Below, one piece after another: positions 3,950-41,065 of a stretch of DNA of 64,000 bases (positions are counted from its first letter, which is position 1; every line of letters starts with the position of its first letter). Source of the DNA: Chloroflexia bacterium (lineage in GTDB: Bacteria; Chloroflexota; Chloroflexia; QHBQ01; JADMIH01); NCBI GenBank assembly GCA_036386675.1, contig DASVVE010000063.1:2279-66278 (forward strand), written 5' to 3'. Position numbers and translations under genes: made by a program. A model generated the notes under the pieces. The model saw only the letters and a list, made by a program, of their open reading frames with translations. It had not been told where the DNA came from and made no database searches.

Positions 3950-5314
3950 TTACTCCTCGCCGAAGCGAATCTGGTCAACGAAGACCCAGGCTAGCTCGCC
4001 TGCATCGTTCGTGTCTGCCCTGTAGAAGCTGATCACCTTGTTGGTGGTGTCGCCGTTCTCATCGAAGCTGGTCGTGCCGAGAACGCCCTTGAAGTCCTTC
4101 GTGTTGCGGAGGGCTTCGCAGACAGCGTCGCGAGACGGCTCGGAGGCACGGCTGATGGCATCGATGGCGATGTTAGCGACCTCGTAGCCGGGGCCGGAGT
4201 ACGCGCCCAGAGCCTCCTTGAAGCCTGCCGCGTTGTAGTCTTCGATGAACTGCTTGGCTTCGTCGAGCGTTTCGACGTTCACGGCGGCCACTGTGGAGTA
4301 GCTACCGACAGCGTCTTCGCCAGCGACGTTCAGGAACTCGGCGTCCTGGATGCCGTCGCCGCCCATGAGGGGCACGTCGAGGCCGGAGGACTTCATGGCC
4401 TTGCGGGCCAGCGGGATGTTGTTCGAGGAAGTGCCACCGTAGTAGACCAGGTCGGGGCCAGCGGCGGCAACCTTGGTCATGATGGAGCTAAAGTCCGTCG
4501 TACCCTTCGGTACACCATCATGGCCGAGGACCGTGCCGCCCAGTTCCTCAAAGCGCCGCTTGAAGTTATCAGCGATGCCTTTACCATAGGTCTCCGTGTC
4601 GTCAAGGACATAGACCTTGGTCAGCTTAAGCTCGGTGTAGGCGTAGTCAGCAGCCGCCGGACCCTGGATGTCGTCGGTGGCGGCCACGCGGAAGTAGGTG
4701 ACCTCACCGGTTGGGCGGTAATTCTGAGTCTGACCGTACTCAGGCTTGGTCAGCGTCTCGTTGGTGTTCGAGGGGCTGATCTGGCACAGGCCGGCCGTGT
4801 TCAGCTTCGGCATCATGGCCTGGGCGTTCGAGCTATTGAAGGGGCCGAGCACTGCAAGCACTGCCGGGTCGGCAATGAAGGAGTCGGCGTTCTTCGAGCT
4901 TTGTGCCGGGTCGTGAGCCGTTCCGCCGGGCGGCACGTCATCGAGGAAGTACATCTCCAGCTCGTAGGTCTTGCCCGCGACCGTCACGCCGCCGTTCTCG
5001 TTGGCCTGGCGGATGGCAAGCTCCATACCGTTGCGAGTGGGGAGACCGATAGAAGCGTCGCCACCCGACACAGGGAGGTCAACGCCTATCTTGATCGTGT
5101 TCCCTTCAAAGGTGCCGCCGGTTGTGGTGCCGGTAGTAGCGGTGGCGGTATCTGTGGTGCCGGTGGTGGCAGTAGCAACATCTGTGGCGGCACCGGTGGT
5201 GTTGGTCGGGACGGGAGTGGAGGCAGCAGGGCCGCCGCACGCCGACATAATGATACTTCCAGCCAAAGATAGCGAGGCTACCAACAAGCTGAGTTTACTC
5301 GATTTTCTTAGCAT
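3950..5314 (-). CDS. livK: Branched-chain amino acid ABC transporter substrate-binding lipoprotein (LivK/LivJ family) with Thr/Gly-rich linker
   Basis: 454 aa; signal peptide with lipobox (…IIMSAC); low-complexity T/G/A linker, then a periplasmic-binding-protein type I fold (KIGVDLPVSGG…); first gene of the operon. Confidence 0.8.
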   Translation of the reverse strand: MLRKSSKLSLLVASLSLAGSIIMSACGGPAASTPVPTNTTGAATDVATATTGTTDTATATTGTTTGGTFEGNTIKIGVDLPVSGGDASIGLPTRNGMELAIRQANENGGVTVAGKTYELEMYFLDDVPPGGTAHDPAQSSKNADSFIADPAVLAVLGPFNSSNAQAMMPKLNTAGLCQISPSNTNETLTKPEYGQTQNYRPTGEVTYFRVAATDDIQGPAAADYAYTELKLTKVYVLDDTETYGKGIADNFKRRFEELGGTVLGHDGVPKGTTDFSSIMTKVAAAGPDLVYYGGTSSNNIPLARKAMKSSGLDVPLMGGDGIQDAEFLNVAGEDAVGSYSTVAAVNVETLDEAKQFIEDYNAAGFKEALGAYSGPGYEVANIAIDAISRASEPSRDAVCEALRNTKDFKGVLGTTSFDENGDTTNKVISFYRADTNDAGELAWVFVDQIRFGEE

Positions 5315-5681
5315 GAACTCTCCTCCGAAATCTGTGTGCTATAGTCTATACCTCGCCACAACGACCAGCCCATAGTCATGGCCGCATCGGGTTGCCCAAA
5401 CCCCGGAGCTTGCAAGCGAGGAACTTGACCCCTAGTAGGCCGATCACCTCCCCTCTTAAGTTGGTGGAAGATCGAGGGCGGAGATGGTTCGCGCACCCCG
5501 TCCAAAACCTAGAGGATGGTTACTCCAACACCCAGCCGCTTATGGGAAGGTACAGCAGGGTACGAAGTAGGCGCATTATAGATTACCCATCTTTCTGCTG
5601 TCAAGAGCTTACACCCCTTGCTGCCGTTGAGGGTGGGCTGGGACACGCTAGCATACCTATTGAGCGCGTCCCAGCAATCCC

Positions 5682-8600
5682 CTATCTCACCTCGGTGAGT
5701 CTCTGCCTTGCAGCGTCTACCCAACCCTCGGCCCCGGCCGGAGCGTTGTCAATCACCTTCTGGTAGGACGCGATGGCGTTCTCACGGTCGCCCTTCAACT
5801 GGTAAGCCTGGCCCATATGATAGTATGCCTCTACAAATCGGGGGTCCCTCTCGACTGTGGCCTGGAACTCGCGGATGGCGTCGTCCATGCGCTTGCGGTC
5901 GAGGTAAGCGATACCCACCTTGTTGTGCCCGGCAGGATTGTTGACGTCTATGTCCCTTGCATCTTCCCAGGCCTTGAGCGCCTTGTCCGGCTCCCCTCCT
6001 TGCTGGTAAGCGTCGCCAAGCATGTGACGCAGAGCCACGTTTGAGGGGTCCTGCGTCACGAGGGTCTCCAGCTCGCGGGCGGCATCAAGCGGGAAGTTGT
6101 GCTGGCGGTACCAATCTACTAGCTTGAAGCGGTTGTCTCGGTTCAGCGGGTCCAGTGCGACCAGGTCGAGAAGCGCCCGCAACTCAGGGTCGTCGGTCGG
6201 CGGCGTGGGCATCGGCGTGGCCGTAGGAGCAGGTATAGGGGTGAAGGAGACGCCGGGTATGCCTGAATTGGCGACGGGCGCACCTACCAGGGTGCTGACT
6301 TTTCGCGCCGGGTCGCGCACCACCTCATAGATGATGGTACCGGCAATGCCTTCGGGTTGCTGAGTCCTGAAGACCTCGCGGAGTATGTTCACGTCAGGGT
6401 CAGCAAGCTGCTCGAACTTGCGCATGCCGGTCGCGCCGGCTCTTGCCTGCTCTAGCTGTCCGAGGTAAATGTAGTCGATATCGTACTTGCTAAGTAAGGT
6501 GAGGACGACTTGCACGTCGGGCGTGGTGAAGAACGTATTCATGTCGCTGCGGCGGTCACCCACGAGCCAGCCGTAACGCTGCTCTTCCTGGTGGAGGCCG
6601 CCGACAACCATTGGCAATCCTGTGTTCGCCGCCGCCCGCATGCCATAAGCCCGGTAGTACTCCACCGGCAACTCCGCCAGCACCTTTGCTCCTTTCACGT
6701 TACTATTGAGCCAGTTGATAGCTTCGTAGTCGTATTTGAGGTTGACCTGTACGGGCGGCACGTCGGGGCCGATATCGGCGGTGAAGACGGCTGAAGTCAT
6801 GAAGGCCAGTCCGTTAAGCGTTCCTGCGGGCGGGGTCGCGCCGAAGCGTTTCACGAGGCGGTCGGGAGTCCCAAGGAAGGTAAAGGCCAGCGAGCTCATC
6901 AGCAGGAGTGCAAAGGCTCCCAGCCAGACGAGCCTCCCCACAGTCCAGCGAATAGCGGGACCTTCCTGCTCCTGGTCTTTCCCGTGGGTGATATCCAGTG
7001 GTGCGGGACCACTCACCCGGTCCGCTGCCGGGGCCGTGTGCTCAACTTGTGCAACGTCCGTGGCATCCGATGCATGCTCCATCGACCAGACTAGCCAGTT
7101 CTCAGGTTCCGCACCTCTATTGCCATCGGAGCCTTGAGTCTCACGAGGGGCGGGGTGGCTCGCGGAGTTCACTGCCGTTTGGGATGAGGTAGGCACGCTC
7201 GCACCATGCGCGCTTAATGAACTATCCGTCTCATCGAGGCGTTCCTCGCGCTCGCCTGCCGTACCCAGGGCATGCTCCCGTAAGCCAAATAGCATGTAGT
7301 AAATGGCTGATGCACCCGCGAGTGCCCAGAGCACCCACACCTGCATGTAGAACTTGAAGACGGTGTTCATGCGGAACTTATCGCTGCGGCTCAGGTGGTC
7401 GGCCAGGTAAACCAGTTCCACACCCGTGGCGACCGCAAGCGCGCCCATCATGAGAAGTCCGCAGAACAAGTTTCCGGCGGTGCGTGAGGTGGAAAGGGTG
7501 GTGGCCGCAATGCCTCCGAGAAGCGCGACAAGGAGGGCCAGCAGCCACTGGCCGGTGACCATTTGCAGCACCACCAACCCGGCCGTGATACCGAGCAGGC
7601 CGAGTCCGGCCCATAACGGGATTAATCCAGGCTCAACTGCCTCGGTGCGAGCAACGGGCGACTGCGCCGGCACTGCTACTTCGTGCATCCCCAACTCCGA
7701 GTCATCGACCGAATCGCTCAGACCGGGGAACGGTGTTGCCGTCACCGCACCAAGGGTAACACGGCGTCTCACCTTCAGAGTCTTGTCTGCTTCGGCGCTC
7801 GCGGCGCTCAACCAGCCGCCGGACGAGGGATTGTTGCCGTTGCCATCTGTAGTCGTTGCGACCGCACCATTACCACCCGAATCAGCAGGGCCGTTCGTGG
7901 GCGGCGTACCTTCGGGCGCGGCCCGGCCGTCAACCTCCTGGGTGGACTCCTGCTCGTCCAGCGTACCTTCACCGGAGCCACGCACGAACCGCACCGGGTC
8001 TAGGGGCAACGGAGCGCCCTGGGGTAAGGCGAGTGCCGGTACGAGACCGGAACCCTGCCGCTGACGGTCTCCACTCCCGAACAGCGTAAATGCCTGTTGG
8101 GGCGCTAAATCTGTGGTTGGGCGCTCCGCAGCGCGGGGCAGCACGCCCATGAGGCTATCTACTGCCGCCGTCCAGGGGAAGTGCCACAGCCGGTAGACGA
8201 GATAGGACGCCGCGATGAACACAAACAGGCCCCATACCACCAGGAATTCGCCGACCGTAGTCCTGTGCATGAATTCCGCGGTGTCAGCGATGCGTCCACC
8301 GTCAACGAGCGCGTTGATGGCGGTGTAGAAGGCCTTGAAGTTGAGGAAGAAGGGGAGATAGGCTAAGAGCGAAAGTCCCGCCAGGAGTCCGACGGACGCC
8401 AGGGCAGTTCCGTACATACCTACTTGTTCCCTGAACGTCAGGTGACTGCGTAGCGAGGTATCAGAGGCAGCGGGAGCACCCGCCTGCCACTCACGCCGAG
8501 GTCGTCCGAGTAGCAAGAGGGCGACGACCGCACCACCCCCGGCGAGACCCAGGTACGTCGGGAAGTCCCATGAATTGATGACGAGCAGCGCGCCGAGGTT

Positions 8601-11600
8601 GAGGGCGAACAGCACGAAAGTAAGCGCGCCGGTCGCGCCGCTGCCCCACAGCCAGCCCAACGTGCTTGCCACCCGGAGACGAGAAGCTTGCCACCAGGAC
8701 AGCGCGCTGTTGCCTGAAACCAGGAGGAGCGGCTTTCGGTAAGCCCCTGCAAGGACCAGATTCAGGATGAAGAGCACCGCCATGACGGTAAAAGGCATGT
8801 TTATGAGGTGCGGGTGCAAATCCGCGAACAGGAACGTCCAGTAGGGAAATTCGTTGATCGTGTCGTTGATGATACGGCTGGCGTCCCAGTAGTTGAAGCT
8901 GGGGTAGTAGTTGTACATCGATTGTTCGCCGAAGCCGAGCCTGCTGCCCAGGTCCGCGATACTGCGCCCGACATCCGGGAAGGTAATCATGACCCACTGA
9001 ATCAGGCCGTGCATGTTTCCGATCACCAGCATCAGGAAGCCGGCCAGTGCGCCAAATACGATGCCCGACTGCGATACCTGGCTGGTGCTCCCACGCCGCC
9101 TCTGGCTCCAGGCGACCAGGTTGTAGACGACGCTCATACCCGCCGTGAACGTGAGCGCATAGAACAGCGGTACAGCGAGGTTGAAGGCAATGGCCGGGTG
9201 GATGCCGAGCAGCTTTACCAGGCAGGCGATAATAAAGTAGCCGTAATAGTAATAGTTGATGAAACCGCCCGCGAAGAAGGGGTCAAGGGCGGGCATCCAC
9301 GGGCTGCGAAGCACCGCATTGAGGAAGCCGATTTCCATTGGCTTCTCACCACCCTGGAACGTGTGCCAGAGGTCGGGGTTCGCCATCCGCAGCGCGAGCA
9401 CGCCCGCGAAGGCAACCAGGAACACCGCTTCATACGCCAGTACGAGGTTCCGCTTCGTCCTGAAGAATTCTCGAATTTGGCTACCCGCGCCCAGCCGCCA
9501 ACAAAGTGTGGACAGCGCCGCCAGCATACCTACCATCAACAGGAGTCCCCAGATCGTGAAGGGAATCACCCTGGTGCTCGCGGCGATCCACATGCCCCAG
9601 GCTATCATCAGCAGGGCGGCTAGCTTGGCGACTGCGTAGCCACGGTCGGGCACGTTGCGGAAGACCGTAAACACCACCGGGAGCGCCAGCAGCCCAAGGG
9701 CCTCTACCAGCAACAGCCACAGAGCTACGGCGAACCACTGAGTCTGCTCCTGGCCCAACGGGTTCCAGGCGTAGTCATCTAGCTGCGGCAGCGTATTTAC
9801 AGGCTGGGTGTAGCTCAGCCCCTTGTCGTCCTCGACTTTGCCGTTCGAGGCATCTATGGACATGATCGGGCGGTTGAGCGCGGTGCTGAACAACATGCGG
9901 TACTGGTCGTCCGTCAGTTCGCTTACCTTCTTGAAGACGTCCACGCGCGGGTGGTCGTAGACGGTAAAGCTTTCGTCGGCAGGCTGGTCGTTTATCGCGA
10001 TGCCGAATAGTTCCGGCGTTACTTGCGTGGTGTTGGCGCTGACAAAGCCCAATTTCTCGGCAAACAGCAACTCGTAGTACTTGCTCTGAACCGGGTATTG
10101 CCAGGGCAGCCGCGGGATCGAGCCATAGAGGCGGTTGCTACTCATGATGATGTAGTCAGCACGCCGCAGCCAGGTCTTGATCCGCTCAAGCTCCAGGTCG
10201 GGCTGCGCGAAGTTATACAGCTCCATCTCGAAAGCGGTGGGGTAGCCGCTACGGTCCTGCCCGTTACGCGGGGGCAAGGAAATAGGCAGGCCGTAATCCC
10301 AGTGTTCGGTCGCCAGGGTGGCCTCTCTAGGCACGTTATCGTGAATCCACTCGGAAGCCTGCACCCGCGAGTGGGGTTGGCTGTACACGTTCATGAACGC
10401 CACAGCCCACAGGAAGGCCCAACCTATGCTCAGCGCGATAAGCGCGGGGAAGACGCCGCGCTGTAAACTCACCAGGCGAACTGCCCTCCGGGAGGAGTCC
10501 GCACTGGCCCTGGCAACGAACCGCTTGCGGGACCAAATAGCTCCGCGCACCAGGAATGCAGCACCGAGAATGCAAAAGATGGGGACCAGCGGCAGCATGT
10601 ACCGCATCCACTTGCTGAGCAGCGTGGCTATAGTCAGGAAGTAAGGGATGCCCGCCGAGAGGAGCAGAATCTCGGCCGGACGGCGACGAAGCGCCTGCCA
10701 AAAGGCGGCAAGGGCACCAATCACTGACATCAGGCCGGGCACCAAGCCCATGCCCCAGAAAACCATCTGTTCAAGTTGGTATACGACGGGCGCGGTCCCG
10801 ATGTACTGCCGCGTAAACGGCACCGGGCTTAGCCCCGACTGTACGGCCTGTTCGCCTCTGATTCTCCTGGACCAGGGGTTGGACTGGATAAGGGCGTCCA
10901 GGCCACCGCTGCTTAGCGTCGAGAAGTCAAAGCTCCAAAGGACGTAAGGCTCACCGACTGCGAAAGCCAGTAGCGAGAAAACCGCAGCCAGCAGAACGTA
11001 CTTCGCCCCACCGAGCAAGTGTCCGCCAAAACTACGCTCTCTCTCCTCGGTGGTGGCGGGGGAGACACCCACGGGGTCGCCGAATTCTGCGCCAAGCCTC
11101 CTCGTTCGTTTGCGATAGACCGCGCGAAGCACCACAGCGGCCACAATGACCAGCGCGATTGGCAGCACCGAGATCTTGCATGCGACCGCGAGGCCCAGGC
11201 AGGCACCGGCCGCTACCGCTACCCACCAACGCGGCCGTTGCATGAGCACTACGCTGAAATAAACCGCCCCCATGATGAAAGTCACGAGAAAGCTCTCAAC
11301 GATGAAGAAGTGGGCGATTTGAATGGCAGTGACCGCAAACCCATACAGGGCCGCCGCGATAAGGGCTGTGCCGCTGGAATAGAGTCGTCGGGCAACCAGG
11401 AAGACCAGCAGCACGGTAATAAGGTCGAAAATGGAGGCCAGAGAGCGTCCGATGATGGCGATGCCTTCTATGCTCCTTACCCAGTAGCCGTCCGGCTGCG
11501 TAGACGTAGGGGGCAGGACCGAGTCGAGAAGCCAGCCCGTCGCACGTTCCAGGTAGATCGGGAAGGCACCCCAGGGGTACTCGTTCAATTCGTCGCGCCG

Positions 11601-11876
11601 GGTGTTGAGCGTGCTCACATGCCAGTCGAAAATGTCCTCGTTCCTGGAGGGCCAGTTGATCTGCGGCGTCGTATAATTGAGGATCGACATCTCGTCGGGG
11701 TTCTGCCAGGTGCCCTGGTCGTACATGCGCCCGTAGAAGCGGAAGAAGGTGGCGCACGCCATAATCAACACGAGGAGCAACAACACCCTGTGCCGCCGCC
11801 AGAACGGCTCGCGTTCTCGCCCGGCTGCTTCCAGGGGCCGATCTACCGACAGGGTGGTAACATGCTGTGAAGACAA
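5682..11876 (-). CDS. Giant polytopic membrane protein: N-terminal GT-C/PMT-like glycosyltransferase module, two hydrophobic 'Chlor_Arch_YYY' (DUF2298-type) modules, C-terminal TPR repeats
   Basis: 2064 aa. N-terminal module has its first TM followed by a loop with NPDE (Asp-Glu as in GT39/GT83 loop 1), many TMs, then a soluble segment beginning EHWDYG at about residue 525. YYYxG motif (GGFINYYYYGYF, nt ~9240–9260). Long low-complexity acidic/Gly inserts. C-terminal ~160 aa are TPR-like repeats. Architecture matches the TIGR03662 description (N-terminal region + 2 YYY copies + 3–4 TPR). Confidence 0.8.
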   Translation of the reverse strand: MSSQHVTTLSVDRPLEAAGREREPFWRRHRVLLLLVLIMACATFFRFYGRMYDQGTWQNPDEMSILNYTTPQINWPSRNEDIFDWHVSTLNTRRDELNEYPWGAFPIYLERATGWLLDSVLPPTSTQPDGYWVRSIEGIAIIGRSLASIFDLITVLLVFLVARRLYSSGTALIAAALYGFAVTAIQIAHFFIVESFLVTFIMGAVYFSVVLMQRPRWWVAVAAGACLGLAVACKISVLPIALVIVAAVVLRAVYRKRTRRLGAEFGDPVGVSPATTEERERSFGGHLLGGAKYVLLAAVFSLLAFAVGEPYVLWSFDFSTLSSGGLDALIQSNPWSRRIRGEQAVQSGLSPVPFTRQYIGTAPVVYQLEQMVFWGMGLVPGLMSVIGALAAFWQALRRRPAEILLLSAGIPYFLTIATLLSKWMRYMLPLVPIFCILGAAFLVRGAIWSRKRFVARASADSSRRAVRLVSLQRGVFPALIALSIGWAFLWAVAFMNVYSQPHSRVQASEWIHDNVPREATLATEHWDYGLPISLPPRNGQDRSGYPTAFEMELYNFAQPDLELERIKTWLRRADYIIMSSNRLYGSIPRLPWQYPVQSKYYELLFAEKLGFVSANTTQVTPELFGIAINDQPADESFTVYDHPRVDVFKKVSELTDDQYRMLFSTALNRPIMSIDASNGKVEDDKGLSYTQPVNTLPQLDDYAWNPLGQEQTQWFAVALWLLLVEALGLLALPVVFTVFRNVPDRGYAVAKLAALLMIAWGMWIAASTRVIPFTIWGLLLMVGMLAALSTLCWRLGAGSQIREFFRTKRNLVLAYEAVFLVAFAGVLALRMANPDLWHTFQGGEKPMEIGFLNAVLRSPWMPALDPFFAGGFINYYYYGYFIIACLVKLLGIHPAIAFNLAVPLFYALTFTAGMSVVYNLVAWSQRRRGSTSQVSQSGIVFGALAGFLMLVIGNMHGLIQWVMITFPDVGRSIADLGSRLGFGEQSMYNYYPSFNYWDASRIINDTINEFPYWTFLFADLHPHLINMPFTVMAVLFILNLVLAGAYRKPLLLVSGNSALSWWQASRLRVASTLGWLWGSGATGALTFVLFALNLGALLVINSWDFPTYLGLAGGGAVVALLLLGRPRREWQAGAPAASDTSLRSHLTFREQVGMYGTALASVGLLAGLSLLAYLPFFLNFKAFYTAINALVDGGRIADTAEFMHRTTVGEFLVVWGLFVFIAASYLVYRLWHFPWTAAVDSLMGVLPRAAERPTTDLAPQQAFTLFGSGDRQRQGSGLVPALALPQGAPLPLDPVRFVRGSGEGTLDEQESTQEVDGRAAPEGTPPTNGPADSGGNGAVATTTDGNGNNPSSGGWLSAASAEADKTLKVRRRVTLGAVTATPFPGLSDSVDDSELGMHEVAVPAQSPVARTEAVEPGLIPLWAGLGLLGITAGLVVLQMVTGQWLLALLVALLGGIAATTLSTSRTAGNLFCGLLMMGALAVATGVELVYLADHLSRSDKFRMNTVFKFYMQVWVLWALAGASAIYYMLFGLREHALGTAGEREERLDETDSSLSAHGASVPTSSQTAVNSASHPAPRETQGSDGNRGAEPENWLVWSMEHASDATDVAQVEHTAPAADRVSGPAPLDITHGKDQEQEGPAIRWTVGRLVWLGAFALLLMSSLAFTFLGTPDRLVKRFGATPPAGTLNGLAFMTSAVFTADIGPDVPPVQVNLKYDYEAINWLNSNVKGAKVLAELPVEYYRAYGMRAAANTGLPMVVGGLHQEEQRYGWLVGDRRSDMNTFFTTPDVQVVLTLLSKYDIDYIYLGQLEQARAGATGMRKFEQLADPDVNILREVFRTQQPEGIAGTIIYEVVRDPARKVSTLVGAPVANSGIPGVSFTPIPAPTATPMPTPPTDDPELRALLDLVALDPLNRDNRFKLVDWYRQHNFPLDAARELETLVTQDPSNVALRHMLGDAYQQGGEPDKALKAWEDARDIDVNNPAGHNKVGIAYLDRKRMDDAIREFQATVERDPRFVEAYYHMGQAYQLKGDRENAIASYQKVIDNAPAGAEGWVDAARQRLTEVR

Positions 11877-12062
11877 TACGTAGCTCCTAGCTGCGCTTGA
11901 ACGGGATAGGTGGGATTTACGCGGAAAAGTGCAAGCAACCCAAATGTGAGAAGGGGCCGAACCCCACCTCTACAGGCGATTTTAACACAGAGCGATTACC
12001 TGGGGCAAGACCCCGCCGGTCAAGCGTGCGTAGCAAGGAGGCTAATTGCGTGGGAGCGCGGT

Positions 12063-12092
12063 TTGACAAGGTGACTGACCCACGAGAATAAT
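12063..12092 (+). promoter_or_regulatory. Putative sigma70-like promoter (TTGACA–18 nt–AATAAT) upstream of the NUDIX gene
   Basis: TTGACA at 12063–12068, AATAAT at 12087–12092, ~23 nt before the ATG at 12116. Confidence 0.3.
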
Positions 12093-12115
12093 AGCCTGAA
12101 AGAACCGCGACGAGA

Positions 12116-12640
12116 GTGAGATCCATGCTTGAGTATAAGTACTGCCCCATGTGCGCGGCGCCGCTCCAGGTGCTTCACCTTCCGACCGAAGACCGGCCCC
12201 GCCTCGTATGCTGCGGCTGCGGCCACGTATTCTACGTCAACCCCAAGGTGGTGAGTGGCACCCTTCCCATCGACAGGGGTCGTGTGTGGCTGTTGAGGCG
12301 CGGCATAGAGCCGAGGGTAGGCTACTGGACGCACCCGGCGGGCTACCAGGAGTGGGATGAGACGACCGAGGAGGCGGCGGTCCGCGAGACACGAGAAGAA
12401 ATCGGGTGTGAGGTCAGGCTCGACAGTCTGCTGGGAGTCTATTCTCGTGCCGCTGCCCCTGTAGTGAACGTGATCTACGTTGCATCGCTCGTTGGCCCCG
12501 ACCAACGGCCCCGCCTTACGCCCGAAGCCACAGAGGTGCAGGCGTTTGCCCACGACCAGATACCGTGGGACGACCTGGCCTTCATCAGCACCGAACGCGC
12601 CTTGCGTGACTGGATAGAGCTAGTTCGACGGTCGGCGTGA
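12116..12640 (+). CDS. NUDIX hydrolase with N-terminal C4 zinc-ribbon
   Basis: 174 aa; CPMC…CCGCGH zinc ribbon; NUDIX box GYWTHPAGYQEWDETTEEAAVRETREEIG. Confidence 0.8.
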   Translation: MRSMLEYKYCPMCAAPLQVLHLPTEDRPRLVCCGCGHVFYVNPKVVSGTLPIDRGRVWLLRRGIEPRVGYWTHPAGYQEWDETTEEAAVRETREEIGCEVRLDSLLGVYSRAAAPVVNVIYVASLVGPDQRPRLTPEATEVQAFAHDQIPWDDLAFISTERALRDWIELVRRSA

Positions 12641-12648
12641 GGCGTGCG

Positions 12649-13179
12649 CTACAAGTCGGTACCGGGCTTCTGTGCACGCTCCTCGTCTTCCCCTGGCGAG
12701 GGGTAATATAGATCGTCGCTGACTTCCGTCTCCGGGCTGTAAGGTGTTTCCGCGTGTGGCATCGCGTAGTGGATGTGGGGAAGCTCCACTGCCTCGCGAG
12801 AGCCGTTCGAGTCGACCGAGGGTGCAACAGTTTGGGCCGCCAGGTGCTCCGCGATGCGGGGCGGCATATCCCCCCCGGCCATGAACTGGGCTTTCTCCTC
12901 GTCCGTCATCATCTCCAGGACGGGGTGAATCTGTTCGGGTCTGCCGTTCCGGCGGGCGGGTGGTGTGTTGAAGGTGCTAGTGGTCGTAGTCGCCACATTG
13001 TTCAGCTCCGTGGAGATGTCCCGCCAGACGCTCCTCGCAGGCTCAACGGCACGGCGCACTTCGGCAATGCCCTTACCTATGGAGCGGGCGGCTTCGGGCA
13101 GGCGCTCAGGCCCTAGCACAATCAGCGCAACGAGCGCGATCAGCATTATCTCCCCGAAACCCATGCCGAATATTTCCAC
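12649..13179 (-). CDS. tatA: Twin-arginine translocase subunit, TatA/TatB family (length suggests TatB-like)
   Basis: 176 aa; N-terminus FGMGFGEIMLIALVALIVLGPERLPE (Tat TM + amphipathic-helix signature) followed by a charged tail. Confidence 0.75.
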   Translation of the reverse strand: MEIFGMGFGEIMLIALVALIVLGPERLPEAARSIGKGIAEVRRAVEPARSVWRDISTELNNVATTTTSTFNTPPARRNGRPEQIHPVLEMMTDEEKAQFMAGGDMPPRIAEHLAAQTVAPSVDSNGSREAVELPHIHYAMPHAETPYSPETEVSDDLYYPSPGEDEERAQKPGTDL

Positions 13180-13235
13180 GCTAACTCCTGGACCGGTTCT
13201 CGCGAAAAAGTGCGCCTGTCAGCAAGTAATATCCT

Positions 13236-13697
13236 CTAGCTCGCATTCTGCGGGGCACTTGAAGCTACCTCAGCCGACACCCAACGATAGTAATCGCCAT
13301 TTGCGTGCGCGGGCACAATTCTCAAAATGCAGGGTACATCATAGCTGTGGATTTGTTCGATCAGCGCTGCCGCGTCGTTGGCGCGCGAGGCCAAAGTCTT
13401 GCAGACCAGCACCATTTCTTGCGCGTCTGCCACTTCGTCGTTCCACCTGTATAACGACCGCGACGCGTAAATATTGGCGCAAGCGATTAGGCGTTCCGCC
13501 AGCAAGCGCGACCCGATGCCTGCGGCCTCTGTTTCGCTGCTACACGGGACATAAAGCATTGCGAGCGGATCGGCTGCCTGTGAACGTTCTTTCATGTTTA
13601 CACCATTATAACCATCGACGGTGCCGGTCACAATAGGGCCATTCGGCACGAGCCGTGGGCAATCGACGCTTTGGTCGGCTAACGTTTGAACTAGCAA
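13236..13697 (-). CDS. cutA: CutA1 divalent-cation tolerance protein family
   Basis: CutA-like C-terminus (SYDVPCILRIVP…GDYYRWV); the true start is probably the internal Met near 13595 (MKERSQ…). Confidence 0.7.
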   Translation of the reverse strand: MLVQTLADQSVDCPRLVPNGPIVTGTVDGYNGVNMKERSQAADPLAMLYVPCSSETEAAGIGSRLLAERLIACANIYASRSLYRWNDEVADAQEMVLVCKTLASRANDAAALIEQIHSYDVPCILRIVPAHANGDYYRWVSAEVASSAPQNAS

Positions 13698-13780
13698 GTA
13701 CCATGCGCTGTACTTTATAATGGAGATGCGTACCTCTACAACTACGTGTCGCCGCCTGAACCTCCAGAAGTGAGGACGCC

Positions 13781-15829
13781 TTGCTAGTCTTGTCGAAGCG
13801 GCCCCGGGTAAGTCTCAACGCCGATACCTGGAGCCTCACAATCGAAAACGCGCTTCGTGCCGCCGGGCAAAGGATTTTCTGGCGGCGCGCCCTGCGCATG
13901 GCGGCGCTTTCCCTACCTCTCCTTGTACTTAGTGTCGCGGCTTACATAGCCGTGCTCCGATTTACGCTCGCCAGCCTACCTGCCTGGCCCGTGCCGGTCG
14001 CGTTCGCCTGTTGGCTGCTGATAGTTGGACTGTGGACCCGCGCGCAACCGGTGACCAGCGCCGAGGCCGCCCGCTTCATAGACCACTCGCTCGGGCTTGA
14101 CGAACGGGTATCCACATCGGTCGAGTTGATAAACTCGGCCAGGCTGGTGCGTTCGCAAGCGCCCCGCACCGGAGTGCATTACGCATTGCTCGCGGATACC
14201 GCCGAGGCACTCAATGACCGGCTGCACGGTCTGCCCGGAGCACTTCGCTTCCGCTGGACCCGACTCAACGCGGTGGCGGTGGCGGTCGCGCTGCTGGCGC
14301 TCATGGGCGCGATGACAGTGCCCACGCAGGCCGAGTTTGCTCGCGGCGAGCGGAGCGCGTTGGCGAAAGCGGTCCAGGATCAGTTGGCGCAGGTCCAGGT
14401 GCTGCGCGCTGACGTCGAGGTCAACGAACTTCTTTCTTCGGACCTGAAAGCGTCCATCCTGCAGGAGCTTTCCTCGCTGGAAAGCACGCTCCAGAACTCC
14501 TCGCTCGACCAGGCGACGGCGATAGCTACCCTGGCTGACGCGGAGCAGCGACTGCGGGCTATGCTTGAAACGCCGTCGGCGGACTTCGATGGCCTGGTGG
14601 CGGCCGCGCAACTTGTGTGGAACGCCGCTGTCCAGAACCTGGAATGGGAGGTAGACCAGTCGCTTTATACCACCGACCTGGGGAGGGCCTCCGAAGCCTC
14701 GTTGTTCTTGAGCGAGAACGTGAGGAGAATGACTCCCAACGCGGAACGGCGCGTCGCGTTCAGCCTGGAGCGCGCCTCGGGGCAGGCGTCGGGACGCGAG
14801 CCGGACCTCGGTAGGGTGCTCGCGGAAGCCTCGACCTCGGTCCGCAGCCGCGACCATACCCCGGCAGTCCGCGCCCTGGTAGACGCCTCGGAGAAGTTCG
14901 CTGCTGCCAATAACCAACGAGAAGACTCTGTAGCGCTCGAAAATGTGCTGTCGCAACTGAACAAGGGACGCGAACAACTCGCGCAGGCCGGGCGGCCTCA
15001 GACCAAGAAGGCCCAGGTTGGGTTCCGACGCCGTGGCCCGGCAGCAGCCAACCCGAACGCAACCCCAGACCTCGGAAACTTTGACCCTGATGCCGAAGTT
15101 GCGGAAGGCGGGGCCAATGGCAGCCAGGGCAGCGAGAGCGTCAGCGGCCTTGGCCCGCTCGTGGGGGAGAACAACGTAGCCGCGTACGGTGGCTCGCAGT
15201 CGTCGGACGGGACGGGAGGGCAGCCGGCGCAGACTGAGGGTCAGGATGGCACTACCTCGCCAGGCAGCGGCCCTGGTGGTGGCACAAACGCGCAGGAGGG
15301 CGGGCAAGCAGAAGGCAGCCAGCAAACCTCAGGTGGTGGTACCGCCGGTGGCGGGACCTCCGACTCGGGCGAGCAAGGAACTCTCGGCGGCTCGGTGACG
15401 GGGCCGGTGGGAGGCGTGGGAGGAGCAATCAGCCACGTACCGAACCCCTCAGGGCAAGGCAACGCTACCGAGGCCAACAGCACCCCCGTGCCGGGCCAGG
15501 AGGAAAGCGATACAGGTGGGGAGCAAGTCTACGTACCCGGCGGTACTGAAGGCGATAGTGCCGGAATCGAGACGGCGCCTGAGGTAGCGGACGCGAACTC
15601 AGAAGAACCCAACACAGAAGGCGTGGGCGGCCGCATAGGTGAAGGGGATAGCGGTGGGGCCGACGTCTCCTCAGGCACGGGAGAAGGTGGTGCGGTACGC
15701 GTGCAGACACCGTACCGGGAAGTGCTGGCCGAGTACGCGCGCCAGGCTACGGAGGCTATCGATCGTGCTTATGTACCCCCTGATGCTAAGGAATATGTGA
15801 AGAATTACTTCTCCGAACTTGGTAAATAG
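13781..15829 (+). CDS. Membrane-anchored hypothetical protein: N-terminal TM helices, alpha-helical middle, long Gly/Ser/Thr/Glu-rich disordered region, conserved-looking C-terminal ~40 aa
   Basis: 682 aa; hydrophobic segments at the N-terminus; ~250 aa low-complexity (GGTSDSGEQGTLGG…); ends YREVLAEYARQATEAIDRAYVPPDAKEYVKNYFSELGK; directly upstream of MoxR. Confidence 0.6.
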   Translation: MLVLSKRPRVSLNADTWSLTIENALRAAGQRIFWRRALRMAALSLPLLVLSVAAYIAVLRFTLASLPAWPVPVAFACWLLIVGLWTRAQPVTSAEAARFIDHSLGLDERVSTSVELINSARLVRSQAPRTGVHYALLADTAEALNDRLHGLPGALRFRWTRLNAVAVAVALLALMGAMTVPTQAEFARGERSALAKAVQDQLAQVQVLRADVEVNELLSSDLKASILQELSSLESTLQNSSLDQATAIATLADAEQRLRAMLETPSADFDGLVAAAQLVWNAAVQNLEWEVDQSLYTTDLGRASEASLFLSENVRRMTPNAERRVAFSLERASGQASGREPDLGRVLAEASTSVRSRDHTPAVRALVDASEKFAAANNQREDSVALENVLSQLNKGREQLAQAGRPQTKKAQVGFRRRGPAAANPNATPDLGNFDPDAEVAEGGANGSQGSESVSGLGPLVGENNVAAYGGSQSSDGTGGQPAQTEGQDGTTSPGSGPGGGTNAQEGGQAEGSQQTSGGGTAGGGTSDSGEQGTLGGSVTGPVGGVGGAISHVPNPSGQGNATEANSTPVPGQEESDTGGEQVYVPGGTEGDSAGIETAPEVADANSEEPNTEGVGGRIGEGDSGGADVSSGTGEGGAVRVQTPYREVLAEYARQATEAIDRAYVPPDAKEYVKNYFSELGK

Positions 15830-15902
15830 TCTGCCTTGCTGGTGACGTGAGATATGCATTGTAGACCTTGCCGCCGTACTAAAGATTCCCAAGGAGCACC
15901 GA

Positions 15903-16946
15903 GTGGCACTGACTGAGAGAGAGACGAGCGCTGTTGGCACGGGCAACGTGACTCACCCGCGACGCGAGATGAGTCCGGAGGCATTTAGAGAACGGGCGGT
16001 GGCGATTGAGCAGGAAGTCGGCAAGGTAATCGTAGGGCAGCGCAACCTGATACACCAGGTGCTTGTCGCGCTCGTCGCGGGCGGCAATGTGCTCCTAGAG
16101 GGCGTGCCGGGCCTCGGCAAGACGGTGCTGGTAAGGACGCTTGCCGACGTGATCGACTGCCAGTTCAGCCGCGTGCAGTTCACTCCGGACCTGATGCCCG
16201 CCGACATCATCGGCACGAACATCCTCAACGAGGACGAGCATGGCCGCCGCGCCTTTGAGTTCCAGCCCGGCCCGGTGTTTGCCAATCTGCTGCTGGCCGA
16301 CGAAATCAACCGGGCTACCCCGAAGACGCAATCGGCGTTACTCGAGTCGATGCAAGAGGGCACCGTGTCGGTGGCTCGCACGATCTACGAGCTACCCAAG
16401 CCCTTCTTCGTGCTCGCCACGCAGAACCCCCTGGAAATGGAGGGCACGTATCCACTGCCGGAGGCGCAACTCGACCGCTTCTTCTTCAAGCTGGAAGTGG
16501 GCTTCCCTACCGCGGCGGAACTGATAGCTATCTCGGACCGCACAACTTCGGGAATCGATCCTAACGTGGGGCGGGTGGCGGATGCGCAGGACATCCTGGC
16601 TATGCAGCACCTTGCCCGACAGACGCCGATTGCCACACATGTCACGGCCTACGCGGTGCGCATATTGAGGGCCACCCACCCGGACAACCCTGAGGCGGTT
16701 CCCCTCGTGAAGCGCTACGTCCGCTACGGCGGCTCACCAAGGGCGTTACAGGCGATGATTCTCGCGGGCAAGATAATGGCGCTGCTCGACGGGCGTTACA
16801 ACGTGGCCTTCCGCGACATTCGGACGGCCGCGCTGCCCGCGTTGCGTCACAGGCTCATCCTGAACTTTGACGGCGAAGCGGAAGGCATCTCCCCGGATGC
16901 GATTGTCGCGGGCGTGTTGGAAGAAACGTCAGAAGAGATGAAGTAA
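15903..16946 (+). CDS. MoxR-family AAA+ ATPase
   Basis: 347 aa; Walker A GVPGLGKT, Walker B LLADEINRA; MoxR-typical length and C-terminal lid. Confidence 0.85.
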   Translation: MALTERETSAVGTGNVTHPRREMSPEAFRERAVAIEQEVGKVIVGQRNLIHQVLVALVAGGNVLLEGVPGLGKTVLVRTLADVIDCQFSRVQFTPDLMPADIIGTNILNEDEHGRRAFEFQPGPVFANLLLADEINRATPKTQSALLESMQEGTVSVARTIYELPKPFFVLATQNPLEMEGTYPLPEAQLDRFFFKLEVGFPTAAELIAISDRTTSGIDPNVGRVADAQDILAMQHLARQTPIATHVTAYAVRILRATHPDNPEAVPLVKRYVRYGGSPRALQAMILAGKIMALLDGRYNVAFRDIRTAALPALRHRLILNFDGEAEGISPDAIVAGVLEETSEEMK

Positions 16947-17025
16947 CTTGATGCCACCGAGTGGTATCGCTCCAGTGCGTAGCGGGGCAGAAGTTTGCCT
17001 GGCCGGCGCGGGAGAGCGTTAGGCG

Positions 17026-19035
17026 GTGGGTACGATGGGGCTATTGCAACCACTTGCGCTCCTGGCGCTACCCCTGGTCGGGTTCATTCTCGCACTTTAC
17101 TTGCTGCGATTCCGGCGGCCCAGCGCGCCGGTTGGTAGCCTCCACCTTTGGGACAATCTCACACGCGACCGAGAGGCGAACTCCCTGTGGCAGCGACTGC
17201 AACTCACGGGTCTCTTGCTGCTCCAGCTGCTGGTGATGTTGGCCCTCATCCTGGCGCTCGCGCGTCCGTGGGTACCGTCCGAGACTGCTGCCGGACAGAA
17301 CGCGATCATAATCGTGGACACGTCAGCAAGCATGGGCGCCATGGATGGCGGCACCAGTCCCCGGAAAAGCAGGCTTGAGGCCGCCCTTGAAAAGGCACGC
17401 AGCCTGGTGGACGACCTGCCGCAGGGTGCAATTGCCGCCATCATTACCTCTGATGAACATGCCGCCGTTCTTGTGGCCCCGACTGACGATAAGTCTAGGC
17501 TTCGGGACGGTCTTTCTGGGCTGCGGCCTCAACCTACGGGCACCAACATGTACGAGGCTATTCAACTCGCTTCGGTGCTCGCGCAGAAGCAATCGAACGC
17601 AGTAATATGGGTGCTCTCCGACGGTATATTCCCCGCGACAAGAGGGAACGCCGAACAGGTGCCGGCGGAGGTACGCTATTTCTCCGTGGGGCGCGCCGCT
17701 TCCAACCAGGCCATCACCGCCATATCCGTCGACCAGCGTGGGGGTAGTCTGGGGCTGTTTGTGCAACTCGCCAACGCCGACAACCTGACTGTGACGCGCA
17801 GACTGGACGTGCTTGTGGATGATGCTCACTGGAACGCGCGCACGGTGTCGTTGGGGCCGCTCGAGACGCAGGAATTGATCGTCGACGACCTGCCTATCGA
17901 CGGGCGAGTGATAGCGGCGCACCTGGACGGCCTCGATGAGCTTGAGATAGATGACACGGCCTGGACGGTGAACAGGGCGAGCGTGCCTGCCAACGTGCTT
18001 GTGGTGACGAACGGCAACAAGTTCCTGGAACTCTCCCTGGCGCTACTGCCGAATGTTACCCTTTACAAGGTGGCACCGGCCGAATACGACCCTGGCGCTA
18101 CCCTTGAAGGTATACCCTTTGACCTGACGGTGCTGGATGCCGGAGTCGTCTCACCTACCTTGTCCAGGCTGCCTGACGGTAACATGCTCATCTTTGAACC
18201 GAAAGCCTCAACGTCTATCTTCACAATCGGGGACCAGATTATTGCGCCGGTGCCTTCGTTCTCTCCCCTGGAGTCGGGGGGGCTGTCCAGCACGTCCGAG
18301 TCCTCCGGACGCGACCCACTGCTGCGGTTCGTGGACCTCTCCAACTTACATGTCTCCCAGGCGGCCCAGGTCAACCTGCCCACCTGGGGCCACGCCGTAC
18401 TCGGGAGCGACAAAGGTCCTCTGATCATCGCAGGCGAGGAGAGTGGCCGTAAGGTGAGCATTGTTGCCTTTGACCTACAGCAGAGTGACCTTCCATTACA
18501 GATGGCGTACCCATTGCTCATGCGCAACCTTGTCACGTACCTGCTGCCTGACCCTACAGGAGGGGTGCCCGTAGCCGTCACGCCAGGCTCGATTGTCACG
18601 GTGGATGCCGTCGACCAGGCGGTGAACAAGCTGCTGGTGGAAGACCCCTCCGGCAAGGAGTGGACATACGATCTGGTACCGGAACGGAGGCGGGTAGCCT
18701 TCCCGGAGACACGGCAGCCTGGAGTGTATTACATCACCCAGTACGCCCTCGAGGAAATAGTTGCTCAGGAGGCGTTTGCCGTCAACCTGGCCTCCCGTGA
18801 CGAGTCAGCCATCCGCCCCAACCCTGAGCCTGGCTTGCCCGTAGGCGTCCGACCGAACGCCGGTGCAACGACGGTGTCGGACGGCAACCCGTTCCGCCGC
18901 GAGTTTTGGCCTCATGTTGCGGTTGCGGGCTTCGCTGTGTTACTGGCTGAGTGGTTTATTGCACAACGTCTCACACTACGACGCGCCTTCCTGGAATGGC
19001 GCAACCGCCGTGCCCTTCGCAAGTTGAGCACTTAG
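17026..19035 (+). CDS. BatA-like protein: N-terminal double-TM aerotolerance-regulator domain + von Willebrand A domain + long C-terminal region + C-terminal TM
   Basis: 669 aa; N-terminus LLALPLVGFILALYLLRFRRP (BatA_N/TIGR02226-type); vWA MIDAS IIVDTSASM; C-terminal hydrophobic helix. Confidence 0.75.
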   Translation: MGTMGLLQPLALLALPLVGFILALYLLRFRRPSAPVGSLHLWDNLTRDREANSLWQRLQLTGLLLLQLLVMLALILALARPWVPSETAAGQNAIIIVDTSASMGAMDGGTSPRKSRLEAALEKARSLVDDLPQGAIAAIITSDEHAAVLVAPTDDKSRLRDGLSGLRPQPTGTNMYEAIQLASVLAQKQSNAVIWVLSDGIFPATRGNAEQVPAEVRYFSVGRAASNQAITAISVDQRGGSLGLFVQLANADNLTVTRRLDVLVDDAHWNARTVSLGPLETQELIVDDLPIDGRVIAAHLDGLDELEIDDTAWTVNRASVPANVLVVTNGNKFLELSLALLPNVTLYKVAPAEYDPGATLEGIPFDLTVLDAGVVSPTLSRLPDGNMLIFEPKASTSIFTIGDQIIAPVPSFSPLESGGLSSTSESSGRDPLLRFVDLSNLHVSQAAQVNLPTWGHAVLGSDKGPLIIAGEESGRKVSIVAFDLQQSDLPLQMAYPLLMRNLVTYLLPDPTGGVPVAVTPGSIVTVDAVDQAVNKLLVEDPSGKEWTYDLVPERRRVAFPETRQPGVYYITQYALEEIVAQEAFAVNLASRDESAIRPNPEPGLPVGVRPNAGATTVSDGNPFRREFWPHVAVAGFAVLLAEWFIAQRLTLRRAFLEWRNRRALRKLST

Positions 19036-19046
19036 TAGAAGGAAAC

Positions 19047-21746: not shown

Positions 21747-22512
21747 CAGGATGCGGACCGTCGATCTCAATGCGGACGTAGGTGAGAGTTTCGGGCCGTG
21801 GCCCATGGGCCACGACCGGGAAATCATGCCTTTCATCACATCCGCAAACCTTGCCTGTGGCGGTCACGCGGGCGACCCTGACGTCATGGCCGCCACGGTC
21901 CGGCTCGCGGCAAGTCATGGTGTCAATGTCGGTGCGCACCCTGGTTACCCGGACCTGGCCGGCTTTGGTAGACGAGCCATCGCCTTCAGCCCGGACGAGG
22001 TGCGGAACTTCGTACTATATCAGGTGGGGGCGCTCTGGGCCATCGCGCGCGCCTGTGGAGTTGAACTGCGCCACGTCAAACCCCATGGGGCGCTATACAA
22101 TGTGGCAGCGAGAGATCGCCTAACCGCCGAAGCTATAGCCGGTGCCGTACGGGAGTTCTCACGCGAGTTACCCCTGGTGTGCCTGGCCGGGTCAGCTGCC
22201 GAGGAAGTGTCGCTCGAAATGGGGCTTCCCACGCTCGCCGAGGGCTTCGCAGACCGCGCCTACGAACCCGGTGGAGCACTGCGAGACCGTAAGCTGCCGG
22301 CGAGCGTACACCACGATCCCGCGGCGGTGGCAGCTCAGGTCTTGGGTCTGGCCAGGGGCGAAGTGCGAGCCGTCGACGGAAGCACTCTGCAAGTGCGTGT
22401 GGACACAATCTGCCTGCACAGTGACACCCCGGAAGCCCCGTTGTTCGCTCGTGTCGCCCGCCAGGCGCTCGAAGATGCCGGCTACGTTGTTGCGCCCCCA
22501 ACGAACAGCTGA
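21739..22512 (+). CDS. pxpA: 5-oxoprolinase subunit A (LamB/YcsF family, PxpA)
   Basis: 257 aa; DLNADVGESFG…GHD N-terminal motif; alternative start at 21751. Confidence 0.85.
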   Translation: MPDRMRTVDLNADVGESFGPWPMGHDREIMPFITSANLACGGHAGDPDVMAATVRLAASHGVNVGAHPGYPDLAGFGRRAIAFSPDEVRNFVLYQVGALWAIARACGVELRHVKPHGALYNVAARDRLTAEAIAGAVREFSRELPLVCLAGSAAEEVSLEMGLPTLAEGFADRAYEPGGALRDRKLPASVHHDPAAVAAQVLGLARGEVRAVDGSTLQVRVDTICLHSDTPEAPLFARVARQALEDAGYVVAPPTNS

Positions 22513-22513
22513 G

Positions 22514-24166: not shown

Positions 24167-24197
24167 CCCATACGAAATGGACGCCGAGAGGTTGTGG

Positions 24198-24467
24198 TTA
24201 GGCTTTGGTGTACGGCCCGGTGCTGATGCGGTGGGCGCGGCCACCTGCGGTGAACTCGAGGTTGCGCAGGATGCCCACCTGCGCCCCGATGCCTATTTGC
24301 TTGTTTCCCACGGTGATACCTGCCTGCATGGCGTCGGTTGCAGCACCTTCCGGCGTCAGGGCACGCTCGCCGGGATTGGCGTCAATGTCCTCGCCACCGG
24401 GTCCGGTAACCTGGTTCTGGCCGGACATTCCAGGGTCTTGTCCTCTTCGGTAGTAGGTATCTGCCAT
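24198..24467 (-). CDS. Small Gly-rich hypothetical protein (89 aa)
   Basis: Fills a 310-nt gap between convergent genes; strong SD (GGAGAG, 4 nt spacer) before the ATG; no recognisable domain. Confidence 0.35.
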   Translation of the reverse strand: MADTYYRRGQDPGMSGQNQVTGPGGEDIDANPGERALTPEGAATDAMQAGITVGNKQIGIGAQVGILRNLEFTAGGRAHRISTGPYTKA

Positions 24468-24476
24468 GTTGCTCTC

Positions 24477-26135: not shown

Positions 26136-26147
26136 GAGAGGACCTGC

Positions 26148-26687: not shown

Positions 26688-26690
26688 GAT

Positions 26691-28223: not shown

Positions 28224-28262
28224 TCAAATGCTCCAATGGCGTTTACTGCTCTCGCGGAAGTC

Positions 28263-32004: not shown

Positions 32005-32008
32005 TGTG

Positions 32009-41063: not shown

Positions 41064-41065
41064 GG

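Follow-up and report, generated by a model that had tools for sequence, protein, structure and literature searches.

What does a 2064-residue membrane protein of a Chloroflexia bacterium do at the cell surface, when it joins a glycosyltransferase-like head to a second membrane module of the uncharacterised TIGR03662/DUF2298 type? The gene lies on the reverse strand of a 64,000-nucleotide stretch of contig DASVVE010000063.1 (NCBI GenBank assembly GCA_036386675.1, positions 2,279 to 66,278), which is called the window here and to which all coordinates refer. Chloroflexota envelopes are poorly understood, and to our knowledge no glycosylation enzyme of the head-YYY type, YYY being the tyrosine motif by which the TIGR03662/DUF2298 module is known, has been studied in this phylum. 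In this paper we combine profile searches, structural models, residue conservation and genomic context to follow up an initial annotation of this gene. The reading that we judge to have a slightly better than even chance is that the protein is a tandem glycosylation enzyme, in which two modules are paired and act on the outer face of the cytoplasmic membrane with a polyprenyl-phosphate sugar as donor.

Membership of the TIGR03662/DUF2298 family, which the initial annotation had taken from the family description, was confirmed with Pfam and TIGRFAM hidden Markov models (HMMs), as that annotation had proposed. The protein scores 455.8 bits against TIGR03662 (curated cut-off 300.25; amino acids (aa) 713-1826, in pieces) and 347.3 bits against DUF2298 (PF10060; cut-off 27.8; aa 758-1517, in pieces), and so exceeds both curated cut-offs. 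PMT_2 (35.3 bits, cut-off 26.1; aa 146-251) and PMT (30.7 bits, cut-off 22.7; aa 144-253) were found in the head, and several TPR families above cut-off at aa ~1931-2048 agree with the TPR tail that had been described; neither Pfam nor NCBIfam returned an STT3 family match at E<=1. Within a large, catalogued but uncharacterised family the protein is an ordinary member, and it consists of a domain of the glycosyltransferase C (GT-C) type, one YYY/DUF2298 domain and a TPR tail; the models point to a membrane enzyme with roughly 27 helices. An N-terminal region combined with TPRs is an architecture of the sort that we take to be part of the TIGR03662 family description.

The initial annotation counted two YYY modules, and this count has to be corrected to one because the profile pieces occur once and in order. 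When the protein was scanned in three pieces, TIGR03662 profile positions 1-430 fell on aa 713-1233, Pfam DUF2298 profile positions 406-488 on aa ~1430-1517 and TIGR03662 profile positions 551-711 on aa 1648-1826, which is a single pass interrupted by two low-complexity inserts (aa 1245-1410 and 1535-1645). True two-copy proteins occur at other Chloroflexota loci (L047, L055, L080, L082 and L084; 2360-2909 aa) in the order head, YYY, YYY, and it is presumably these that fit the "two copies" class of TIGRFAM, the window protein being of a different class. It shares with TIGR03662/DUF2298 a score at curated level and the N-YYY-x-G motif, and differs from the two-copy class in having one copy with two long disordered inserts inside the domain.

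The N-terminal ~500 aa had been described as a complete GT-C-fold module, and the structural comparison agrees. An AlphaFold2 (AF2) model of aa 1-712, built from a 40-sequence alignment, has a mean predicted local distance difference test (pLDDT) score of 85.8 and a predicted TM-score (pTM) of 0.88, and when it was compared with the PDB by Foldseek the first 45 matches were all GT-C fold proteins, among them AglB (7e-9), STT3A/B, yeast Stt3, ArnT (1e-6), ALG12/ALG9, PglB, DPY19, Pmt4 (TM-score 0.54), AftD/AftA, Emb and PIG-U. The model thus shows with high confidence that module 1 adopts the GT-C fold; its chain is predicted to start inside the cell, cross the membrane in about 11 transmembrane (TM) helices and end outside. 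By its profile matches the head is assigned to PMT/PMT_2. Against TIGR03663, the Agl23 family, module 1 scores 24.3-27.8 bits, far under the cut-off of 126.25; a Pfam scan of the protein gave no MIR domain match at E<=1, and a PDB sequence search with module 1 found nothing real.

In enzymes of the PMT/ArnT type the catalytic acids are found in the first outer loop, where its first juxtamembrane helix begins. In the model of the window protein, D61-E62 stand at the start of this helix (60-72), and this putative catalytic pair is present in 112/112 aligned homologues, together with P60 in 111/112 and D53 in 107/112, giving a family consensus of D...HPDER. The NPDE that had been noticed in the first extracytoplasmic loop is therefore N59-P60-D61-E62 of this conserved motif, and the opposite outcome, a head with no likeness to GT-C proteins and no conservation of the acid pair, is clearly not what was found.

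Module 1 is followed by a soluble alpha/beta domain with a motif of its own, ADESFxVYDHP, in which D641 and P643 are invariant and E635 and H642 nearly so. Near its beginning, ~25 residues past the head's last TM helix, is E524-H-W-D-Y-G529, which had been likened to the WWDYG motif of the oligosaccharyltransferases (OSTs). The four residues are indeed present after the last helix (aa 526-529), but the likeness does not extend to the homologues. Across 120 of them E524 is kept in 114, W526 in 116, D527 in 115 and P531 in 119; position 528, by contrast with the OST motif, is Asp or Glu in 104 (Asp in 92) and Tyr in 5, position 529 is Gly in 24/120, and the residue preceding W526 is never Trp. 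An OST WWDxG motif was rejected because its first Trp, its Tyr and its Gly are not conserved and no STT3 match was obtained. The alignment points instead to E-x-W-D-[DE]-x-L-P (aa 524-531) as a family-specific acidic motif at an OST-like position.

The YYY module is itself well folded in its model outside the two inserts (aa 706-1900; pTM 0.80; most blocks with pLDDT >90). Conservation was measured over sequences down to about 25-30% identity, and in the first outer loop R830, N833-P834-D835, G-G-E844-K-P-M-E, P862-P-x-D865-P and N874-YYY-x-G879 form the conserved set. The last of these lies in GGFINYYYYGYF (aa 870-881), in which N874, Y875, Y877 and G879 are invariant in 119-120/120 homologues; the YYYxG motif seen in the initial annotation is N874-Y-Y-Y-Y-G879, and its Y875, Y877 and G879 are kept in 120/120. 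Other invariant or near-invariant residues are W837, G842-G843, K845, M847, P1011, W1103-D1104, P1175 and those of R1502-x-N-T-x-F-K1508. All of the invariant residues are predicted to be on the outer side, in loops or where helices end, with both inserts in the cytoplasm and soluble domain 2 and the TPR tail outside. An invariant cluster of E1009, D1019, H1021 and H1023 at the outer end of a TM helix is a possible metal site. The modelled order of a TM helix (809-832), NPD, a short helix (845-857), PPxDP, a helix that begins in the YYY motif (877-890) and the next TM helix would give this segment the layout of a GT-C first outer loop. A comparison of soluble domain 1 with soluble domain 2 found a shared 17-residue "W..NV plus strand" start only, which was not significant and was set aside.

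The likeness of the YYY module to GT-C enzymes was approached both by structure and by profile. Foldseek matches of the YYY model were weak, with E-values of 0.13-0.3, and those with a probability >=0.2 were all GT-C enzymes or an AglB domain, all else being <0.2: DPY19 was found at a probability of 0.72-0.75 (E=0.13), STT3B at 0.77 (E 0.19) and AftA at 0.47, together with AglB and PglB. Soluble domain 2 weakly matched the C-terminal globular domain of AglB (3vu0_B; probability 0.82, TM-score 0.40). Plain hhalign found no similarity between modules 1 and 2 (probability 4.9%). When AF2 secondary structure was supplied, the best match joined aa 25-66 with 804-848 (P=0.0037, probability 43%), laying TM1 and HPDER onto the fourth helix and NPD..GGEKPME, with E62 on E844. 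A second, collinear match joined aa 219-251 with 1086-1118, and the P values of the two matches were 0.004-0.008 versus ~0.4 for reversed-sequence controls; in a relaxed alignment the head's [FY]-x-[YW]-G103 fell on N-YYY-x-G879. The secondary-structure-aided match between the modules is suggestive only, and the YYY module is probably GT-C-like. Matches in the PDB to a DasR fragment and to antibody CDR-H3 (third heavy-chain complementarity-determining region) loops were rejected; the CDR-H3 loops happen to read NYYYYG. In a separate 611-aa YYY fragment (P0194), aa 413-545 matched Wzy_C, the O-antigen ligase family, at 28.6 bits, under the cut-off of 31.7. This match overlaps the last part of the DUF2298 match and runs past it; it may have arisen by chance or may point to remote kinship.

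The family had been called rare, which its distribution contradicts: a YYY-core profile matched 5867 clusters at 50% identity (E<=1e-3), 4987 of them at E<=1e-10, and at least 593 matching stretches were confirmed in GTDB species genomes. The best 80 loci of these at least 593 stretches were searched with HMMs of five parts of the protein, and all 80 are from Chloroflexota (Chloroflexia, Dehalococcoidia, SAR202, Anaerolineae, Caldilineales, Ktedonobacteraceae and Thermoflexus). A head-YYY fusion is present in 75/80 and head-YYY-YYY in 5. A further stand-alone YYY gene is nearby in 22 loci, usually directly downstream, and in 11 loci a nearby gene is strongly similar to an Agl23-family (TIGR03663) protein; two such neighbours, checked against NCBIfam, scored 280.5 and 194 bits (cut-off 126.25). 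In locus L004 an Agl23-family gene immediately follows a stand-alone YYY gene. Same-strand runs of up to four genes, made up of the head-YYY fusion, a stand-alone YYY protein, a 600-650-aa PMT_2-like protein and an Agl23-like protein, occur in Anaerolineae, Caldilineales and unclassified Chloroflexota loci, and the Agl23-like protein carries a C-terminal NHL beta-propeller in both cases checked (L047 and L075). Neighbourhood clustering of 85 loci gave no recurrent partner besides further PMT_2-like and YYY genes. GAPDH, enolase, prephenate dehydratase and Usp were rejected as partners, since they reflect synteny among Dehalococcoidia.

The window holds a single gene of the head/YYY kind, as searched with the part HMMs. 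The initial annotation had named nearby S-layer homology (SLH) proteins as candidate substrates. Among the ORFs (open reading frames) scanned, the sole SLH protein is encoded at 34349-36745 on the opposite strand, 22 kb off and separated from the giant gene by unrelated metabolic operons, so that genomic linkage to SLH proteins is not supported. This protein has 798 aa and comprises an N-acetylmuramoyl-L-alanine amidase, a Golvesin_C domain and three SLH domains.

In the mechanism that we favour, module 1 (aa 1-705) would be a PMT/ArnT-type GT-C glycosyltransferase which, by analogy with the PMT/ArnT family, takes a sugar from an outer-leaflet polyprenyl-phosphate carrier and passes it to an extracytoplasmic acceptor. 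The YYY module (aa 706-1890) would most probably be a second, very divergent GT-C-like unit, either catalytic or lipid-carrier-binding, as proposed from its GT-C-style first outer loop, the D-x-H-x-H cluster that is invariant in it and the outer alpha/beta domain that it has for itself. The modules would work as a pair, either adding successive sugars or dividing the task, one module moving the lipid-linked sugar across the membrane or along it, as reported for archaeal Agl23, and the other making the transfer. The extracytoplasmic TPR tail would be an accessory module to which the acceptor or a partner protein is bound. As to the destination of the sugar, glycosylation of a secreted or surface protein and synthesis of an envelope glycopolymer have about the same likelihood; protein or S-layer glycosylation, which the initial annotation suggested, is thus a possible class of acceptor.

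Several points weigh against this mechanism. Taken alone, the evidence from Foldseek, PDB search or plain hhalign does not reach significance for assigning the YYY module to GT-C; hhalign without secondary structure gave a probability of 5-11% for modules 1 and 2, and neither the YYY module nor a 20-sequence YYY-core profile obtained a genuine match in PDB sequence searches. The invariant YYY residues are located by predicted helices and sequence rather than as one coordinate pocket, and the topology is a reading of the DSSP helix pattern, hydropathy and the positive-inside rule rather than the output of a dedicated predictor. No polyprenyl-phosphate sugar synthase (glycosyltransferase family 2, GT2) or small flippase was found adjoining the gene among the window ORFs scanned nearby, or among recurrent neighbours elsewhere, and the literature searched yielded no functional study, enzymatic or genetic, of any DUF2298/TIGR03662 protein.

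The strongest alternative, which we rate as somewhat unlikely, is that the protein does not glycosylate proteins but makes an envelope glycopolymer or lipoglycan, as one of several GT-C paralogues which lengthen a polysaccharide outside the membrane in the manner of the mycobacterial Emb, Aft and Mpt proteins. In its favour, PMT_2-like and YYY paralogues occur in arrays of up to four in a row, AftD, AftA and Emb are among the fold matches of the head, and the spread of the family over most Chloroflexota classes resembles that of a core envelope function. The family is, however, also present in Dehalococcoidia and presumably, from the TIGRFAM description, in Archaea, groups in whose envelopes surface proteins predominate. 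Tails of the TPR and NHL types are, moreover, more typical of protein recognition, and polysaccharide genes flank the giant gene neither in the window nor among the recurrent neighbours elsewhere.

A division of labour between flippase and transferase, in which the PMT_2-like head moves a polyprenyl-phosphate sugar as Agl23 does and the YYY module is the sole true transferase, or the reverse, appears unlikely. Agl23-family genes (TIGR03663), which are PMT_2-like, adjoin YYY genes, a separate flippase gene was not seen nearby, and purified Agl23 translocates a lipid-linked oligosaccharide in liposomes in vitro and rescues a yeast rft1 deletion (PMC11182771). Module 1 is nevertheless not a member of TIGR03663 (24-28 bits versus 126), its outer domain is large and it retains a DE pair of the catalytic type, and outer NHL propellers occur in some of the Agl23-family neighbours, all features of transferases rather than of simple flippases.

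It is less probable still that the YYY module has no catalytic role and accompanies the one active GT-C enzyme of the fusion as a scaffold, a chaperone or a transporter. It has no significant similarity to any solved enzyme, and non-catalytic GT-C-fold proteins do exist, such as PIG-U, one of the module 1 matches, but ~twenty residues, mostly Asp, Glu, His, Asn and aromatic, are invariant in predicted outer loops at 25-30% identity, a pattern typical of an active site. An OST-like head, which would take a preassembled glycan off a polyprenyl-diphosphate carrier and attach it to proteins, using E-x-W-D-D in place of WWDYG, is very improbable: although the best Foldseek E-values are to AglB/STT3 (7e-9 to 1e-7) in alignments that span the outer domain, W526-D527 is conserved at the OST-like place and a Wzt-type ABC transporter, a kind tied to polysaccharide export, is in the window at 39543-41138, the head lacks both the STT3 match and the WWDYG residues as described above, its sequence matches are to PMT/PMT_2, whose members use monophosphate-linked single sugars, and the TM-score is as good or better for Pmt4.

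The tandem glycosylation enzyme that we prefer can be set beside several known systems. With PMT/PMT_2 enzymes (Pmt1/2/4 and ArnT) the window protein shares Pfam scores above cut-off, the GT-C fold, a count of ~11 TM helices and an invariant Asp-Glu where the first outer loop begins, but it is without MIR domains and has its own alpha/beta outer domain (E-x-W-D-D, ADESFxVYDHP), and the sequence similarity is confined to aa 144-253. In the eukaryotic O-mannosyltransferases TMTC1-4, too, a GT-C membrane domain is followed by TPRs, which form a C-terminal array on the side of the membrane away from the cytoplasm. This analogy, drawn in the initial annotation, is a fair one, the TPR tail being extracytoplasmic by our topology reading; the window protein differs in an extra 16-helix YYY module between the GT-C head and the TPRs and in having no TMTC-specific family match, and most YYY-family members are without a TPR tail. 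With STT3, AglB and PglB, whose E-values are the best by fold, the window protein shares a conserved W-D beyond the last TM helix, and its soluble domain 2 is weakly like the AglB C-terminal domain, but WWDxG is unconserved, an STT3 sequence match is lacking and the motif in the first outer loop is PMT-type. Mycobacterial Emb/Aft arabinosyltransferases are also large GT-C enzymes with outer carbohydrate-handling domains and paralogue sets that use polyprenyl-phosphate sugars, although the similarity is of fold only (E 6e-5 to 1e-2) and they have neither a YYY module nor TPRs. Agl23 of Haloarcula hispanica, finally, is PMT_2-like, acts on dolichol-phosphate-linked sugars and belongs to a family paired with YYY genes; it is a separate protein reported as a flippase, whose family cut-off module 1 falls far short of. 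Module 1 is nonetheless the same general kind of protein as the Agl23 family, in the same YYY partnership.

What this analysis adds to the catalogued family is its one-copy-with-inserts anatomy, evidence that YYY is probably GT-C-like and its systematic pairing with PMT_2/Agl23-type proteins. More tentatively, at a chance short of even, DUF2298/YYY may be an extremely divergent and so far unrecognised family of GT-C-type glycosyltransferases that works only with PMT_2/Agl23-type partners, fused or adjacent; YYY and its partners would then form a tandem extracytoplasmic glycosylation machine with a core envelope-building function in Chloroflexota, and in Archaea the YYY counterpart would be the transferase still missing for the dolichol-phosphate hexose that Agl23 handles. 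Through the pairing, a family of several thousand sequence clusters gains a function that can be tested; it also bears on two archaeal questions, the real role of the Agl23 family and the enzyme that uses dolichol-phosphate hexose outside the cell. A single large gene conserved across Chloroflexia, Dehalococcoidia/SAR202, Anaerolineae, Caldilineales and Ktedonobacteria would also be a handle on surface decoration.

Table 1. Positions of the giant gene and its predicted parts in the window, and of gene runs at related loci
Feature	Position	Strand	Details and basis
Whole gene	5682..11876	(-)	2064 codons + stop (stop 5682-5684); 2064 aa; TTG start
Promoter-like site TTGCCC-18-TAAAAT with TG	11979..12008	(-)	Upstream of giant gene; consensus match only
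AGGAG ribosome-binding site	11884..11888	(-)	7 nt upstream of TTG at 11876
Module 1, PMT/PMT_2-type GT-C transmembrane domain, aa 1-505	10362..11876	(-)	Pfam PMT_2 and PMT, AF2, Foldseek
First outer loop motif D53...N59-P60-D61-E62, putative catalytic acid pair	11691..11720	(-)	Conservation, AF2 helix 60-72
Soluble domain 1, alpha/beta, predicted extracytoplasmic, aa 506-705	9762..10361	(-)	AF2 model, conservation
E524-H-W526-D527-Y-G-L-P531	10284..10307	(-)	120-homologue alignment
YYY part A, aa 706-1244, 11 predicted TM helices, N-terminus outside	8145..9761	(-)	TIGR03662 1-430, DUF2298 2-390, AF2
YYY first outer loop (GT-C-style)	9240..9389	(-)	Conservation in 120 homologues, hhalign to module 1 TM1/HPDER
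E1009-F-P...D1019-L-H1021-P-H1023 acid/His cluster	8808..8852	(-)	Conservation; location from DSSP and positive-inside rule
Disordered insert 1, aa 1245-1410, G/A/P/T/S-rich, predicted cytoplasmic	7647..8144	(-)	pLDDT <50
YYY part B, aa 1411-1534, 4 predicted TM helices, outer motif R1502-x-N-T-x-F-K1508	7275..7646	(-)	Profile, conservation, AF2
Disordered insert 2, aa 1535-1645, acidic, Ser/Ala-rich, predicted cytoplasmic	6942..7274	(-)	AF2, length comparison
YYY part C, aa 1646-1890, last TM helix and soluble domain 2, predicted extracytoplasmic	6207..6941	(-)	TIGR03662 551-711
TPR tail, 3-4 repeats, aa ~1931-2048, predicted extracytoplasmic	5733..6086	(-)	Pfam/NCBIfam TPR matches
Same-strand runs of up to four genes at loci L047, L059, L075, L017, L049, L032/L038/L041	about 5300-17200 in each

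The giant gene is covered over its full length by orthologues of 45-88% identity. A JGI (Joint Genome Institute) call for the identical public protein (P0001) has 2026 aa, 38 aa fewer (a difference of 11763-11876 in the window), and would fit a start at Met39, inside TM1. The longer model, which begins at TTG and keeps TM1, is better supported because of the AGGAG site and the position of Met39 inside the first membrane helix. A perfect consensus promoter just beyond the stop codon, at 5604-5575, probably serves the downstream Liv-type ABC operon, and the giant gene therefore looks monocistronic. It is flanked by this operon and a TatA gene, and none of the flanks (Liv-type ABC operon, TatA gene, MoxR/BatA/VWA cluster) is glycosylation-related.

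The inserts and the tail distinguish length classes within the family. In the ~2050-aa Chloroflexia class the inserts keep ~170 and ~110 aa down to ~45% identity, and in the ~1500-aa class their medians are 14 and 16 residues. The TPR tail is present in the ~2050-aa and ~2700-aa classes and absent from the ~1500-aa class; across the family C-terminal tails are TPR, NHL propeller or none, a variety that is expected of add-ons which bind an acceptor or partner. At one locus (L001, 9983-16496) the orthologue is split into two ORFs overlapping by ~360 nt, with the break near the first disordered insert: the head and YYY part A are in one ORF, and YYY parts B and C are in the other, where TPR matches were obtained as well for the called gene. 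The split has the appearance of a frameshift, whether genuine or due to misassembly.

Elsewhere in the window, the MoxR AAA ATPase, the BatA/VWA protein and a 931-aa VWA/GATase1-like protein at 15903-21746 (+) resemble a Bat-type operon, and a 682-aa ORF just upstream (13781-15829) has no Pfam match. The Wzt-type ABC ATPase, which carries a Wzt_C domain on the (-) strand, adjoins an upstream ORF (41066-41896); the pair is 28 kb from the giant gene and has no evident link to it. A 1054-aa protein at 46143-49307 (-) combines SpoIID, CarboxypepD_reg, PA14 and dockerin domains, which is an uncommon combination in a wall-associated protein. No tRNA genes were found anywhere in the window. The stretch at 53700-57100 is low in GC (0.487 at 54-56 kb versus ~0.61 elsewhere) and contains two ORFs without Pfam match (53746-54735 and 54620-55915) followed by a phage-type integrase (56033-57091); it is probably an integrated mobile element. 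An acyl-CoA metabolism block at 22142-33796 includes a carboxyltransferase (CT_A_B/CT_C_D), methylmalonyl-CoA mutase, two biotin carboxylases, an HMG-CoA lyase-like protein, enoyl-CoA hydratase and a carboxyl transferase, and LamB/CT_C_D/CT_A_B genes are also found downstream of the orthologue in L001.

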